Assembly: GCA_019648995.1 (NCBI GenBank)
Contig: BLXT01005793.1
Location: 717,157 to 733,215 of the forward strand
DNA: 16,059 nt
DNA from: Plakobranchus ocellatus
Lineage: Eukaryota
Reading direction: 5' to 3'
Within the stretch, counting starts at the first letter, position 1. Each line of letters begins with the position of its first letter. A program made the position numbers and the translations under genes. The notes under the pieces are model-generated. The model was not told the DNA's origin. It made no database searches and was given only the letters and a program-made list of their open reading frames with translations. Below are positions 2,796 to 15,482 of the stretch, piece after piece.

Positions 2796-2936
2796 TTATT
2801 CATCATCATCATCCTTGGAGGCTTTGGCTGGTACCAGGCCACCAATTAGGCCAGAAGCAGTATTGAACAGGTTTATGGGAGATGAACCATCTGTGATGAG
2901 TGTCGACTTCAACCCCAGCGCCTGTAGCATGCGCAC
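2796..2936 (-). CDS. MVP: Major vault protein, terminal coding exon ([46 protein letters not shown])
   Basis: Reverse-complement translation matches the MVP cap-ring/C-terminus motif ([21 protein letters not shown]). Acceptor on the minus strand is ttctttattcatcag|GTGCGC (exon upper boundary 2936). Stop is TAA at 2796-2798 (plus-strand tta). Length is 141 nt (46 codons plus stop), phase 0. Confidence 0.88.
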
Positions 2937-3286
2937 CTGATGAATAAAGAAAACAAATTAGCTATCTGATGGAGCAATGATCATTTCTCATCCTAAACCC
3001 TTCTCCTTACTGTTCAATCCTCTAGGCCACAAATCCTTCACAGCTGTCAACTAGTGGAAACTCTAGTTATTAACAAGATTGGCTACACAAAAGATGAATT
3101 CCCTCTTATAAATCATAAAACAGCAAAACAGTATTATTTTAACCAATTTTCCTTACAACAAAACATATACTGAATTGAGTTCCTTTTTTTTTTAAACGGA
3201 CAAACATTGTTTCTTACAATAATTTTTGTTTACCCACACCCAGCATACACATGTATGGTCTGGAAAAATTGCTCAAAGGAATATAC

Positions 3287-7109: not shown

Positions 7110-7872
7110 CTGATCAAAAAGGAGAGGAGAGAATTATATAATTATAAGAGTCAAGACCCAAAATTGCACAGTGATTGTGGGTTTCTATCACTTCAAATTT
7201 ATTATTGCACTCATAATTTAAATCAAAGATAGCAACAGGATAAATATTTTTGGGATGAATAAAAACAGAACTTCATAAATGAAGAAACATCTTGAAATAT
7301 GTCTAAATCAGCCTAAAGACAGACTTTAAATATTTTTCCTCTTTGAAAGAGCCTGAAACTTCTCTTTTTGTGCTTTAAGATGGTGAAAACTGGATGCAGT
7401 TTTGTTGATTATGAGACGAGACAAAGGTTTTTTATTCATTTAAAAAAGACATTTAACAAAGAAAAATTAACTCATAATTTCTTTTTCTTTTTTTCAAATT
7501 TTTCATATGTTTGTTTAAGATTAAGCCCAAAACAAAAATTTAAACCATTTATATAAAGATCAATTCTCAGTGAGATATCATACCCTGCAAAAGAAGAGGG
7601 AGAAAGCATTTGACAAAGATCTTTGGGATACTAATATAAGAGAGAAAGTACTGCTGGGAAAATGCGCATAACAGAAGAAAATGAAATAAAACTAACAAAT
7701 AAGATAATGTTTGCCTCACAACATACAGCTTTGTTTGAAAGAGAGAGAAACACACTAAAAGACTCTTCAATAGGCAGCAATGCATTTCAATAAAAGTGTT
7801 TTTTTTTAATCAGATAACAATAGTTTTTAGAATCTACTGTCAGATTTCTAATTTTAGAACGAAAAAGGAAAA

Positions 7873-7950
7873 GTGAGAGGGAGAAAAAAACAGAAAGAGA
7901 GAGAGAGAGAGAGAGAGTGAGAGACAGAGAGAGAGAAAGAAGGAGAGAGA
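7873..7950. repeat. (GA)n microsatellite / polypurine tract with pure (GA)10 at 7897-7917, flanked by imperfect GA/GAA repeats
   Basis: Direct reading: ...gtgagagggagaaaaaaacagaaagagagagagagagagagagagagtgagagacagagagagagaaagaaggagagaga. It is intronic, between MVP exons 6912-7109 and 8090-8322. It generates the spurious SLSLSL track ORF 7787..8080(-). Confidence 0.9.
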
Positions 7951-8089
7951 TAAAAGAATAATGTACTTGTTGTGCTTTCTTAAATACAAAGTGTTCACAT
8001 ATATTAGAGAGCAAAGAAAAAAAATTTAATGGCCAGATTGTAGGAGGGTTAACTTTAAAATGAAAGAGAAAGGTGTGCAAGTCTCAAAC

Positions 8090-8322
8090 CTGGCTTTTTT
8101 CTCTTTGTAGTCATAGATCTGAACAGCAGCATTGTGAGGAACACGGAAATTGACCACTCTGGTCTTGTCTCTAGCCTTGTGAGCATCTCTAGAGTCTTTG
8201 CGGTCACTTCGCTCTGCTAGATGGTCGACTGTAAGCAGATTTTCAACAGCAGGTGGGAGCTCTTTTGCCCAAAGCTCCTCATCTTGATTAAGCATGTAAG
8301 TGACACCTTGGATAGCACGGAC
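8090..8322 (-). CDS. MVP: MVP exon ([77 protein letters not shown](R))
   Basis: Matches human [30 protein letters not shown]...[25 protein letters not shown]. Acceptor is ttattacctttcag|GTC and donor is GCC AG|gtttga. Length 233 nt = 77 codons + 2. The split Arg codon AG|A is completed by exon 6912-7109. Confidence 0.9.
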
Positions 8323-9300: not shown

Positions 9301-9450
9301 CTTTCCACTCTTGATGTCTCTCACATATATGCCTTCATTTTCATCCATAGGGATTGCTTGCCTCTTCATAACAACTTCAACTTCTACAGGTGGGACATAT
9401 TCCTTTGGACCTCTGATCATCCATCTGTCCCCAGGGCTGCGAGATACTTG
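9301..9450 (-). CDS. MVP: MVP exon ([50 protein letters not shown])
   Basis: Matches human [47 protein letters not shown]. Minus-strand acceptor has a very strong Py tract: ttttttttttttttaccttttttctttccccatcag|CAA. Donor is AAG|gtaaat. Length 150 nt = 50 codons, phase 0. Confidence 0.9.
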
Positions 9451-9463
9451 CTGATGGGGAAAG

Positions 9464-9669
9464 AAAAAAGGTAAAAAAAAAAAAAGAAACAGTGACAATG
9501 TGTAAGTGACAAGCTGAAAAGCAATGTGTGAAAAAAAATGCAGGCATAAACAAAATTTTCATTCCTTTAAATGAAAATTTTGTTTATGCCTGCATTTTTT
9601 TTCACACATTGCTTTTCAGCTTGTCACTTACACATTGTCACTGTTTCTTTTTTTTTTTTTACCTTTTTT
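9464..9669. repeat. Perfect inverted repeat (palindrome) with 100-bp arms (9464-9563 and 9570-9669) and a 6-bp spacer (ccttta, 9564-9569)
   Basis: Hand reverse-complementation of 9570-9669 reproduces 9464-9563 exactly. This includes the 13-nt A run (9473-9485) versus the T run (9648-9660), and ggt...gaaac versus gtttc...acc. The first mismatch is at 9463 (g) versus 9670 (a). The mirror-image track ORFs 9377..9562(-) and 9528..9722(+) are a by-product of this symmetry. Confidence 0.95.
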
Positions 9670-10595
9670 ATATACATGCATTTTTTCTCCACTCATTACT
9701 AGTGGGTTTTTTTTTCTTTTAAAATTAACAAATTAACTGTAATTGAATATTCATGAATTTTTTTTTTTTCTCATTTGGCTTTGATTAAACCTAAGATGAT
9801 GAAGCCATTAACTGATTCTGGAAAGATCACGGTTGACTACAATGTAATTTATCAACATAGATCTTAATACCAGTTCACTGGTTCTTCAAGGATCAATTTA
9901 TATCATTTTCAATGGTCCACATATTCTTTTTTCCCTTTGCTTTAAATACATACTAAACAACAAAGAATGCATCATTCCCTTTATACAATCAAAACTTTGT
10001 TGCAGCACAATAATTCTCCTAAAATTTAATTACCATTTTGTACCCCCTGAAAAATGACATCCTTGACGAATTAAGTTTTGCACACAGCTAATTTGAACAG
10101 AAACTTTATGTTGGAATGTTAAAATATAAAACTCACTACTTGACAGTAATGCTTTTAGACTGGAGGCAAAAAGTTATGATTTCTAAAACTTAGCATCTTC
10201 TTTCTTTTTACAACAGCAAATATATCCCTTACAAATTATATATTTTTATTTTTTATCCATATTATTAACTTTGTGGGAATAATTTTTCCTGCTGTCAAGT
10301 GATTATGCTGCCTAAGTTATTCAGGCTGTTTATCAAACCACTTTTGAGCAATTAGTTATTTTTTTTAGGTAAAGATTCCATATAAATGAACTCTTTTGGG
10401 TCTTGGGTGAAAAAAATCCTAATAAATATATTTTGCTTTAATTTCAATTATGCAAAGTTCAAATTGAAGCTACAAAAGTCAGAAAAAAAATGCTTATTTC
10501 TTTGTTTATTAAAAAAGATGATGATTCTTACAGTCACACTGAGAAATAGAAAGCAAATGTAGAGGATTCACAATTCAAATGACCTTGATACTCAC

Positions 10596-10715
10596 CCCAT
10601 CCATAAATGACTCTGTAGCCTTAAGAATGAGGCCCTCATCCTCTCCCATTATGTACACATTCTGGATTCCTTTCTCCAGTTTTTCACCAGGCATCAAGAA
10701 AAATGACTTTTCACC
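10596..10715 (-). CDS. MVP: MVP exon ([40 protein letters not shown])
   Basis: Matches human [40 protein letters not shown]. Acceptor is ttcctgacatttag|GGT and donor is GGG|gtgagt. Length 120 nt = 40 codons. Not in the ORF track because it has no start codon. Confidence 0.88.
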
Positions 10716-11706: not shown

Positions 11707-11817
11707 CTTGACGAGTTTCTTTTGGCCTAGTTGGGGATGTCCCTGGGCATCTGTTGGGTCCAGGATCACACAATACTGGCGGTTGTTAAGAGTTGTGATG
11801 TTCACAACACCTACAAC
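11707..11817 (-). CDS. MVP: MVP exon ([37 protein letters not shown])
   Basis: Matches human [37 protein letters not shown]. Donor is AAG|gtaaac. Acceptor is taken as aaaactttttag|GTT (first base 11817), which gives phase 0 consistent with the upstream exon ending on a complete codon. A second AG 7 nt downstream (first base 11810) would break the frame. Length 111 nt = 37 codons. Confidence 0.82.
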
Positions 11818-12138
11818 CTAAAAAGTTTTAAAAAAAAAGAAATGGCAGTTTAGAGGCGCTAAACCCCGCAAAAAAGACTGTGACTGCTTTACATCTTACC
11901 CCGCAGCATATATAACAGCACAAGAGAGTTTAATTCATAATTATTTTGTTCTTCATGTCAAGCGCCCAATTTGAAAAGGACTAGATCTATATTATTGAAA
12001 ATCTGCATTAACAGCCATTCCCAAAGACAATTCATGAACAAAGCCATGTTTGAGACCACATTATTAATCACCAGTATGGCTCTCAACTATTATACCACCG
12101 ACACTATCAAATTTTTAAATGGAAAAATAGATTTATAC

Positions 12139-12296
12139 TTAGTTATTGGTAACATATACCCAATGAATGTATTTTATATTCCTAATACTTACACTTAGTT
12201 ATTGGTAACATATACCCAATGAAGGTATTTTACATTCCTAAGACTTACACTTAGTTATTGGTAACATATACCCAATGAATGTATTCCACATTGCTA
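12139..12296. repeat. 56-bp tandem repeat (minisatellite), about 2.8 copies, unit ttagttattggtaacatatacccaatgaatgtattttatattcctaatacttacac
   Basis: Copies are at 12139-12194 and 12195-12250, with a partial third copy at 12251-12296. There are a few substitutions (gaatg/gaagg, ttttat/ttttac/ttccac, aatact/aagact). It is intronic, between MVP exons 11707-11817 and 12643-12768. Confidence 0.9.
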
Positions 12297-12642
12297 CGAT
12301 TCATTCATTTGTGTATTTTTCTTCTTGATATACAGGGCATTTTATAATGATTATTTCTAAATATCAAATAATTATTTTTGAAATATCTGGTAAAAGTAAA
12401 TAAAAACCTTATTCTAAATAAAAGTGAACTTGGATTACAAATTTACTCTAATCTAAGAAAAATTGATTTTAATATCTTTTAATTTCAAAACCTCCATTTC
12501 ACTAGTCATGACTATATCCTAATATCAGTTTAGAAGCTGGTAAACAAACTTTTCCACTGGAAAAAAAAATTTTTCATCTAAAAATCTATGCATACATAAA
12601 ATATAATTCTTTGAATATCAAGACACTGAGCATATAAATTAC

Positions 12643-12768
12643 CTCTTCATACACATTTGGAATATGTGTCTCTGTCTCCTTCATTGTAATCAGCCATTCC
12701 TCCCCATTCTTTCTAACAATGCCAAAATCATCTTTGAAAGTTCTAAGGGCTCTCATGTGAAGGGCTTT
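12643..12768 (-). CDS. MVP: MVP exon ([42 protein letters not shown])
   Basis: Matches human [42 protein letters not shown]. Acceptor is ttttaccataacag|AAA and donor is GAG|gtaatt. Length 126 nt = 42 codons. Not in the ORF track. Confidence 0.88.
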
Positions 12769-13699
12769 CTGTTATGGTAAAAGCAAAGTCGGATAAGTAA
12801 AAGAGTGAGAGACAAAACAATTATTAGGTACTGACCCATATGTGTGTTAAAGATTTGATGGAATTTATTTTAAAAATTATATGCCAAAGCAATGAGTTCT
12901 ATTGCCATGAAAGGAGATATGATGTAATGGGAACATGCATTATAAATATTTGTCTTAACATTTTAAAATAAATTTCTCTAAAAGAGTTCAAGAGATCTGA
13001 AAATGATTGATATCAATCAACATCCATGTCAATGCTCTCCAGTTTGCATTCATGTGTATTTTTCTATCAGCTTTCAGCAAAATGTGTGATTTTTTATGGT
13101 ACCTAAGAATCTTGAAGATTTTATAACCAAAATATTTTTTTTCTTCTCTATGTGAGCATGTGTGTGTTTTTTAGTGGGATTTTTTTTTGTTGTTGTTGTT
13201 TGTTTTCCAGTAATGAATGCTACAAAACTTAAAGGAAAAATAATGTAAATAAGAAATTCAAAGCTTATATAATGACACATACACTTGGAATCAATTTTTC
13301 AAATTTGTATTTCTGTACATTTTTTTTTTCTCAATATATTGAAACCTATGTGATCCCTCGCAGTGGCCCATCACTATCACAAATTTTTTAAAGTTTATTT
13401 TGAACTTATACTTCAGTTTTCTTGGACTGCTAGTGTGAGATAAGGTAAAATGTTGAATTTTAAAGGTGTGAACTCAAAAAAAAAAAGCACAGCTGAAAAC
13501 AACAAAATTGATGAAACAATACTTAATTATGTATTCAATATAGCAAAAATTATGAAGAAAAAGAGTGAAAACCATGCTGTCAGAATTTTTTTTATAAGAC
13601 TTAATTAATTGAACATCTGATAGCATTGCTAGATGCGGTCTTAACATTAAATTGATATGCAAAAGATAATTTGAAATCAAGTTAAAATGTTGAACAAAC

Positions 13700-13929: not shown

Positions 13930-15482
13930 CTGTCAAAGTTTAGATCATAGAGAATTGCAATTAGAACTGATGTGTTTTGTTGTTTGTGGCTGCAAGTACA
14001 GCAAAACTGCCTCTCGCTATCAAAAGGTGTTAAAAATTTGTTTTTATGATGAGTTTTGGTGCAAATTAAAGTGATCAAAGCTAAACTTACATTTAGAGGG
14101 GTATTCTTAATTTCCACCAGCTAATGTGTTCTATCTTCAAGCAACCTAATGGATGTCATAATCACGGCTTTAGGTAGTGATTGAAAAAAAGGGCGGGAAA
14201 AACATTATGTTGCATACCATAGGAGACAATCATTAATATATATTGGGCAGCACAAGAATACATTCTTATTTTTCTCTGAATTTTCATTTGTATCTATATT
14301 TTTTTTTTTTTATTTAAAAAAACTACACTGTAATTTTGTCCTTAAGTCAGAAGGTTAAGGACTAAGACTAATGATGGATGATTTTTCTGAAGAACTTGCT
14401 TTATTTTTGCACTTTGGTCTGAAAAAAATTAATTTTACATTTATTTTCAGATTTGGTGGACATATACTATGGCTAAAACAAATTTGATGGTGCTAAACAA
14501 CTAAATACATCCACATCTGATGTTGTGCTTCTTTCATATTCTAATCCCACCCTATCCACATTCTTTCCTCTCTTTCAGAAAGCATAGGATTTCTTGGCAT
14601 TCTAGTGAACATTTAAATGTTTTTTAAAGGAAGGGAGAATAGGCCTGGGAGATAAGTTATTAAAAAATGATTGGCACTGATTTAAATCTTTAAACCATTG
14701 TGCAATGTAACATACGAGAACATAATGATTCCATATTAAATCACTAGTTGAGTTACGTTAGCTATGTAGTTGAAGTTAAATACATGCTGGTTTAAGTTAG
14801 GACCAAACTTTAATGAATATCAATCAGAAGAAGCTCTCTCAAAATTCAGTTGCGGTAATTTTCCATTACTAAGAAAAGTAGTTCATCTGAACACTTTCAA
14901 TTTGAAAGAAATCAGATAATTGCTTCTTAAAATATAAATGAATTACATGAACACATGTGAATAGACAAAAAAAAATTGTCAGAGTTAGTGGATGTATGCA
15001 TATATAATGTAAAAATGAATCCCTAATTAGATCAAAATGGAGACACTATTTTCTTATCAGATTGCAGGACTCATACCAGTAACAATTACGTGAAAATAAC
15101 TCGAGATTACAGAGTGAGTTAAGTAAAAACTTCAGGACAGCTATTCAAAAGTATACCATGATATTAAGCAGAGGTTAAAAATTTAACACAGTCTTCAACA
15201 GTCTCTTGTTCAACTTCAACGTCTTGACTGCTAGTTAATTTGCCCTGTGTCATTAAGACAATTTTCCTTAATAGCTAATCTAGATCTATCTAAAAATTTT
15301 TAATTCATTTTTATCTCATCAAGAGTCTTTCTAGATCAGGATTTACATCTAATCTATAGCTCATGTGGAGCAAAAATGGGTTAAATCTTCAGCTAGAAAT
15401 AAATATTTGGCCAATTAAATAAACGGAAGAAATGCTATTTAAATAATAACTCATTAACAGACCTGCCAACCCCAATTTGTTC

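Follow-up and report, generated by a model that had tools for sequence, protein, structure and literature searches.

The major vault protein (MVP) gene of Plakobranchus ocellatus, a kleptoplastic sacoglossan sea slug, carries at the 3' end of one of its introns a perfect palindrome of 206 nt. Our reading, to which we assign a probability of roughly 0.65 on the sequence evidence, is that the palindrome is real and recent, and that it arose locally and in one step as an inverted duplication, through template switching or fold-back synthesis, with probably neutral effect. Below we describe the structure and its setting in the gene, and weigh this reading against an assembly artefact, a mobile element, an older inverted repeat and a selected RNA.

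A perfect 206-nt palindrome

The 16,059-nt stretch of DNA that we analysed (hereafter the window) contains two arms of 100 nt each, separated by a 6-nt spacer (Table 1). Both a repeat search and a direct reverse-complement check found the arms complementary at 100/100 positions, so that the perfect palindrome described in the initial annotation, with 100-nt arms, a 6-nt spacer and no mismatch, holds on re-checking, as do the flanking letters given there (...GGGGAAAG on the left side and ATATACATG... on the right). Complementarity stops abruptly at the outside, where G9463 and A9670 form a mismatch, and the outer ends are sharp and lie within T/A runs (A6GGTA13 / T13ACCT6). At the inside, a 4-bp CATT/AATG pairing bounds the spacer. 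The stem is strictly Watson-Crick throughout, without G-U pairs, mismatches or bulges and with A13 and T13 homopolymers of the same length, and its outer 26 bp contain just three G-C pairs.

The palindrome is far above chance expectation. The second-longest perfect hairpin in the window (spacer of at most 20 nt) has arms of 12 nt, and the longest hairpin arms in 20 dinucleotide-preserving shuffles of the window measured 9-11 nt. In orthologous gastropod loci totalling 153 kb no perfect arm exceeded 23 nt, a length reached in one (AT)n-type tract, and the rest stayed within 15 nt. Folding bore out the complete pairing: as RNA the region forms one unbroken 100-bp stem (-161.5 kcal/mol, z = -23.8), and as DNA it likewise forms a perfect 100-bp stem (-117.5 kcal/mol, z = -26.9). 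No other sequence similar to either arm was found within the 16-kb window.

Table 1. Positions of the palindrome and of the surrounding MVP features in the window (a slash marks a splice junction)
Feature	Position	Strand	Description
Upstream MVP exon	10596..10715	-	100% identical to GFO26131.1
MVP intron with palindrome	9451..10595	-	1145 nt, phase 0; donor GGG/GTGAGT, acceptor CATCAG/
Right arm	9570..9669		Distal arm in the pre-mRNA; sense strand purine-rich, 55% A
Spacer	9564..9569		CCTTTA; sense strand UAAAGG; hairpin loop, non-palindromic
Left arm	9464..9563		Proximal arm in the pre-mRNA; sense (-) strand AATGAAAATTTTG...CACTGTTTCTTTTTTTTTTTTTACCTTTTTT, pyrimidine-rich
Tail between palindrome and exon	9451..9463	-	13 nt, CTTTCCCCATCAG, single-stranded; acceptor AG 9452-9451
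Downstream MVP exon	9301..9450	-	150 nt, 50 codons; donor AAG/GTAAAT

The host gene and its intron

MVP is encoded on the minus strand of the window, where twelve exons cover residues 152 to the stop (from about position 13930 down to 2799); the N-terminal exons lie outside the window. In a homology search the encoded protein groups with heterobranch gastropod proteins. The 90%-identity cluster of its best match holds three Elysia species together with P. ocellatus, and the P. ocellatus protein GFO26131.1 is an exact match to the window exons, species-specific stretches included, which identifies the window as P. ocellatus DNA. This protein spans the junction ...SFMDG/QVSRSPGD... over the palindrome-bearing intron, and the location of the palindrome within an MVP intron, as first annotated, is correct. 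The palindrome occupies intron positions 927-1132, inside the final 219 nt. To its right lie 926 nt of unique intron and then the correct upstream exon; each flank is unique and follows the exon order conserved in the relatives. The exon downstream has a length that is a multiple of 3, and the reading frame would be kept if it were skipped.

The database entry GFO26131.1 is a partial protein (803 aa, ending in ...GPDMQ); the last MVP coding exon and the stop codon are present at 2796-2939 (-) of the window, and the gene model can be completed from there. Two further introns contain repetitive sequence. Three tandem 56-nt units, 86-93% identical, lie at 12133-12300, in the MVP intron that separates exon 12771..12640 from exon 11817..11707, and a purine-rich, (GA)n-like low-complexity tract lies at about 7856-7960, in the intron downstream of exon 8322..8089. 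Similar (GA)n-like tracts occur in three Elysia loci (L005, L007 and L008) and are the source of many spurious blast matches. A Pfam scan found no domains in stray ORFs elsewhere in the window. Among the protein matches, the UniRef entry 'Salmonella sp. s51228', a major vault protein of 759 aa with 71% identity to the query, almost certainly reflects a bacterial record contaminated with eukaryotic sequence.

Comparison with other gastropods

We compared the orthologous intron in seven loci, from Bulinus truncatus, Biomphalaria glabrata, Elysia crispata, E. marginata and three ENA gastropod contigs. Three of the seven come from confamilial Elysia, and one of the ENA contigs is near-identical to the E. 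crispata locus. The intron varies from 204 to more than 1000 nt across these loci (204 nt in Bulinus truncatus, about 600 in Biomphalaria glabrata, about 500 in E. crispata and 615 in E. marginata), and only the exons can be aligned to the window, at about 75-87% nucleotide identity; the introns do not align. The initial annotation had pointed to this intron in related species as a place to look, and we find no conservation there: a hairpin at the orthologous position is absent from 7/7 loci, neither arm has homology to the Elysia introns, and the 153 kb of related gastropod loci hold no second copy of the palindrome. Judged from these sequences, the palindrome is lineage-specific, a derived state confined to one lineage.

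The comparison also bears on the identity of some of the deposited contigs. Two near-identical MVP loci in ENA ERZ26859052 (L003 and L004) differ in intron lengths and are probably haplotigs of one heterobranch. For nearly all exons, the locus from ENA ERZ24894579 (L005) gave blast statistics against the window near-identical to those of the E. crispata locus from GCA_033675545.1 (L007), with identities and alignment lengths in agreement, which indicates that the former belongs to E. crispata or a very close relative and was deposited separately.

Read and assembly artefacts

The published P. ocellatus genome was assembled with Platanus 1.2.1 at default settings out of paired-end Illumina data (reads of 150 nt, inserts of 250 and 600 bp) plus Nextera mate-pair libraries, with no long reads and no amplification (PMC8079154), and the exons in the window are identical to the annotation of that genome. 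A missed adapter or chimeric long read, offered in the initial annotation as a possible source of the palindrome, therefore does not apply: the published genome, from which the window presumably comes, is Illumina-only, and the palindrome is bounded, the right arm ending at 100 nt and giving way to unique intron. Fold-back artefacts are palindromic across the entire read, with a breakpoint near the read midpoint (PMC12870357). The P. ocellatus palindrome resembles such palindromic reads (PMC12870357; PMC6218980) in its perfection and its very small loop, and differs from them in its bounded arms and in its unique and collinear flanks.

We also searched for adapter sequence. Eight adapters, comprising Illumina, Nextera junction, TruSeq and SMRTbell types, showed no similarity at the centre of the palindrome or in its arms; the best score (Nextera R1, 11/33 positions) was equalled in 4/300 shuffles before correction for the eight adapters. 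An adapter-derived palindrome was rejected, as the best scores fall within the shuffle range and none lies at the centre.

An artefact of short-read assembly is a different matter. Here the Platanus graph or its gap-closing step would have passed one unitig twice in opposite orientations, and the animal would have only one arm, or else an imperfect or interrupted inverted repeat. Platanus does merge high-identity bubbles and close gaps by local assembly (PMC4120091), and the two arms constitute one node in a canonical k-mer graph, which would make them identical by construction. Moreover, no independent assembly was matched by exact look-ups of the window ORFs: five window-encoded products, palindrome-crossing ORFs included, and GFO26131.1 gave no match, and a homology search with the exon-plus-intron ORF returned other species only. 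We nevertheless regard this explanation as unlikely. An assembly free of Ns needs reads that contain the loop junction (...TTTTCATTCCTTTAAATGAAAA...) as well as the outer junction (...ACCTTTTTTATATACATG...), the latter dividing as ...ACCTTTTTT and ATATACATG..., and random chimeric molecules would not give both junctions at a fixed position. Nor do chimeric library molecules produce arms fixed at 100 nt whose outer junction is defined. The unique flanks, the conserved exon order and the lack of adapter similarity likewise argue against it, and the E. marginata assembly, a product of the same pipeline, shows no hairpin of this kind in 37 kb, which is a small sample.

The assembly method does affect how the identity of the arms is to be read. 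Given shared canonical k-mers and the removal of bubbles by Platanus (PMC4120091), a small number of true arm-to-arm differences could have been lost, which makes the zero divergence weaker evidence of extreme youth; the age of the palindrome may be underestimated.

Search for a mobile or viral element

With a length of about 200 bp, an AT-rich composition, an intronic location and what amount to full-length terminal inverted repeats, the hairpin-forming palindrome resembles foldback elements and MITEs, and repeats make up 29% of the P. ocellatus genome (PMC8079154). We asked whether it could be a palindromic non-autonomous transposon of this type, inserted beside the 3' splice site, and find this improbable. 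A scan of all symmetric boundaries for target-site duplications of 2-12 nt detected none except a trivial palindromic TA inside the arms, in agreement with the initial annotation, which had seen no clear duplication. The whole element is palindromic, with no unique core beyond the 6-nt spacer, its ends (A6/T6) carry no superfamily-like terminal motif, and unlike known MITEs and foldback transposons it has no second copy in the sequences searched, namely the window and the 153 kb of related loci. Exact 22-27-mers of the arms are absent from metagenome, prokaryote-genome and viral collections, in which slug DNA is not expected. A library of 5.8 billion proteins contains no relatives of the arm-encoded ORFs, and among 1.84 billion protein representatives these ORFs had a single match, to a low-complexity repeat protein. 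Perfect arms would in addition demand that a transposon had inserted very recently.

Two more specific candidates were rejected. A TA-flanked MITE of Tc1/mariner type with an inner boundary would need a palindromic target of 8+8 nt (an 18-nt perfect palindrome). A parvovirus-like terminal hairpin or a Helitron end does not fit a simple AT-rich stem with no viral ORFs nearby and no Helitron termini.

Position of the stem relative to the splice signals

In the sense strand the intron ends with, in order, the A-rich distal arm, the loop UAAAGG, the proximal arm ending ...CACUGUUUCUUUUUUUUUUUUUACCUUUUUU, the tail CUUUCCCCAUCAG and the exon. The stem thus ends only 13 nt from the acceptor AG of the 150-nt exon, and the polypyrimidine tract of this acceptor is formed by the proximal arm. 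The best-placed candidate for a branch point, the motif UUUAC at about 22 nt from the AG, also lies in this arm. As the reverse-complement relation of the arms involves a splice-acceptor region, further splice-like motifs occur within them: the proximal arm contains a 3' splice site-like TTGCTTTTCAG (RNA UUGCUUUUCAG) at 9513-9521 (-), with its AG at 9514-9513, and the distal arm contains, within 9630-9663 (-), the 5' splice site-like motifs AAG/GTAAA (GT 9662-9661) and TGT/GTAAGT (GT 9631-9630).

The A-rich block of the distal arm continues into the upstream flank at 9670-9800, the sense strand being 48-60% A over 9651-9800. As this A-richness runs on from the arm into the flank, it speaks weakly for the distal arm as the original, in which case the pyrimidine-rich proximal arm would be the copy; on the other hand, a pyrimidine-rich intron end is also typical of an original 3' splice region.

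Search for a structured or selected RNA

The initial annotation had named strong constraint, such as a structured RNA, as one cause of the identity of the arms, an idea that the present data do not bear out. The palindrome is not conserved, and no Rfam family matches anywhere in the window at the gathering score. Under relaxed thresholds it matches several long-hairpin models, among them the plant families MIR5048, MIR6027 and MIR2118, far sub-threshold; the best of these, MIR5048, reaches 71.7 vs 160 bits on both strands, and since the scores are equal on both strands the matches reflect shape only. No covariation-backed structure is conserved in the relatives, where homologous sequence is absent. 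The lack of G-U pairs, mismatches and bulges, together with the equal length of the A13 and T13 runs, points to copying at the DNA level and not to selection at the RNA level.

A selected RNA element could take several forms, namely a source of hpRNA, endo-siRNA or a young miRNA, an ADAR target, or a regulator of the 3' splice site. Its attractions are that the palindrome is transcribed as part of the sense strand of a gene that is conserved and expressed, that the stem is extremely stable and occludes a polypyrimidine tract 13 nt from the acceptor, that the adjacent exon is a multiple of 3, and that intronic template-switch hairpins have turned into miRNAs elsewhere (bioRxiv 10.1101/2023.04.19.537475). 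We hold it to be highly improbable in view of the seven gastropod loci and the Rfam results described above, and of the stem itself, which is three times the length of miRNA or mirtron hairpins, ends short of the splice site and has no wobble pairs.

Among known systems of this kind, hpRNA (endo-siRNA) loci and tailed mirtrons share with the palindrome a long, perfectly paired intronic hairpin at the 3' end of the intron. They differ in that the stem here is 100 bp and not about 30 bp, that a 13-nt tail precedes the acceptor, and that the palindrome is neither conserved nor matched in Rfam at threshold. A tailed mirtron was rejected, as it requires a hairpin of ~60-70 nt with one end at the splice site, and the present hairpin is 206 nt long and leaves intron tails of 13 nt on its 3' side and 926 nt on its 5' side.

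Origin of the palindrome

A recent fold-back or hairpin-primed inverted duplication, which the initial annotation had listed among its explanations, is the best-supported origin, given the exact arms, the lack of a target-site duplication and the lineage specificity. We infer from the sequence the mutational mechanism, the youth of the event, its neutrality and any effect on the RNA. In our proposal, about 100 nt of intron by the 3' splice site would have been copied once in reverse-complement orientation, leaving the 6-nt spacer, the likely cause being a switch-and-return error by a DNA polymerase. This could have been a template switch during replication, either within one strand (hairpin-primed) or between strands, or alternatively a fold-back 'snap-back' synthesis during break repair, at a resected break. 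One-step copying of this sort would give perfect pairing along the whole hairpin and no target-site duplication. An exact and adjacent inverted copy, a short spacer bounded by CATT/AATG, sharp ends, the absence of a target-site duplication and lineage specificity all fit a single switch-and-return event.

Processes of both kinds have precedents. Template switching creates perfect hairpins in a single event with no need for a pre-existing repeat, and the resulting hairpins are located mostly in host-gene introns, in the sense strand (PMC5453318; PMC8794818; bioRxiv 10.1101/2023.04.19.537475). Mutations of this class, described by the four-point model (Loytynoja & Goldman 2017; Monttinen & Loytynoja 2022; Monttinen et al. 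2023), are the closest known kind to the palindrome, sharing with it an adjacent reverse-complement copy, a perfect hairpin formed in one event, and the lack of both a target-site duplication and a prior repeat. The hairpins described there are miRNA-sized (bioRxiv 10.1101/2023.04.19.537475), and the 100-nt arm is well above this. The P. ocellatus palindrome behaves like a large example and is best called a putative member of the class. Fold-back templated inverted duplications at double-strand breaks, involving Pol delta or Pol theta, are likewise documented (PMC11724301; PMC11292364). They resemble the palindrome in being inverted copies of a flank whose synthesis starts from a few microhomologous bases and leaves a tiny loop; CATT/AATG at the 6-nt spacer would correspond to such bases. 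Their reported products, unlike the present one, are mostly short (5-34 bp at yeast breaks; PMC11724301), and a deletion or junction scar would be recognisable only against the ancestral allele. A copy of 100 nt stands at the large end of the documented events, which are mostly shorter.

We also considered an older inverted repeat, whose arms were kept identical by recurrent arm-to-arm correction, through intrastrand template switching or gene conversion, or whose small differences were collapsed by the assembler. Template switching is known to homogenise imperfect inverted repeats (PMC5453318; PMC8794818), the bubble removal of Platanus (PMC4120091) would act in the same direction, and the A-rich composition of the distal arm runs into the flank. 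There is also a weak similarity between flank and arm interior, where 24/30 positions agree between 9664-9695 and 9530-9560 / 9578-9603. This similarity is not significant, however, being reached in 29/200 shuffles, no degraded repeat continues past the sharp ends of the arms, and the palindrome is absent from the relatives at all seven loci. An older repeat is in our judgement quite unlikely. The variant in which the distal arm formed part of an old ~80-nt tandem repeat shared with the flank was rejected, as TRF reported nothing and the best local alignment was not significant.

Discussion

Our analysis favours a one-step inverted duplication that placed a second, inverted copy of about 100 nt of intron next to the first, and the resulting palindrome probably has no selected function. 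Established splicing and dsRNA biology nonetheless suggests several ways in which it could act on the MVP transcript. The pre-mRNA would fold co-transcriptionally into a perfect 100-bp hairpin, the 3' arm of which would comprise the polypyrimidine tract and the probable branch region and would end 13 nt before the acceptor. Because the distal arm is transcribed first, the hairpin can close once the proximal arm emerges, before the AG is made. U2AF and U2 require the polypyrimidine and branch sequences to be single-stranded; the stem could therefore weaken the acceptor, leading to in-frame skipping of the 150-nt exon, to intron retention or to the use of cryptic sites. Alternatively helicases could unwind the stem, ADAR could hyper-edit it or it could be diced, and its outer 26 bp, with their three G-C pairs, may breathe. 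The annotated P. ocellatus protein includes the 150-nt exon, and the gene-modelling pipeline used RNA-seq evidence (PMC8079154), which is compatible with normal splicing and falls short of direct proof.

We think it very unlikely that the palindrome is already an active RNA element, that is, a newborn 100-bp dsRNA that buries the polypyrimidine tract and branch region of a constitutive exon in a deeply conserved gene, and that works as a nascent locus for small RNAs or ADAR substrates, or else as a switch for in-frame skipping of the 150-nt exon. Were it so, the locus would offer a natural snapshot of a very large template switch creating a new regulatory RNA.

As a single, non-conserved locus in a draft genome, the palindrome is of limited general importance. 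Should read-level data not confirm it, it would serve as a useful caution on palindromes in de Bruijn assemblies built from short reads. Should they confirm it, the MVP intron of P. ocellatus would hold an unusually large and clean example of a perfect hairpin made in one step, with arms of 100 nt and zero divergence, and the one-step creation of intronic hairpins is the proposed source of new miRNA and hairpin genes. Its effect on the RNA would moreover be directly measurable: with a perfect 100-bp stem at a 3' splice site, the locus would offer a simple natural test of how such a structure is handled by the spliceosome, ADAR and Dicer.
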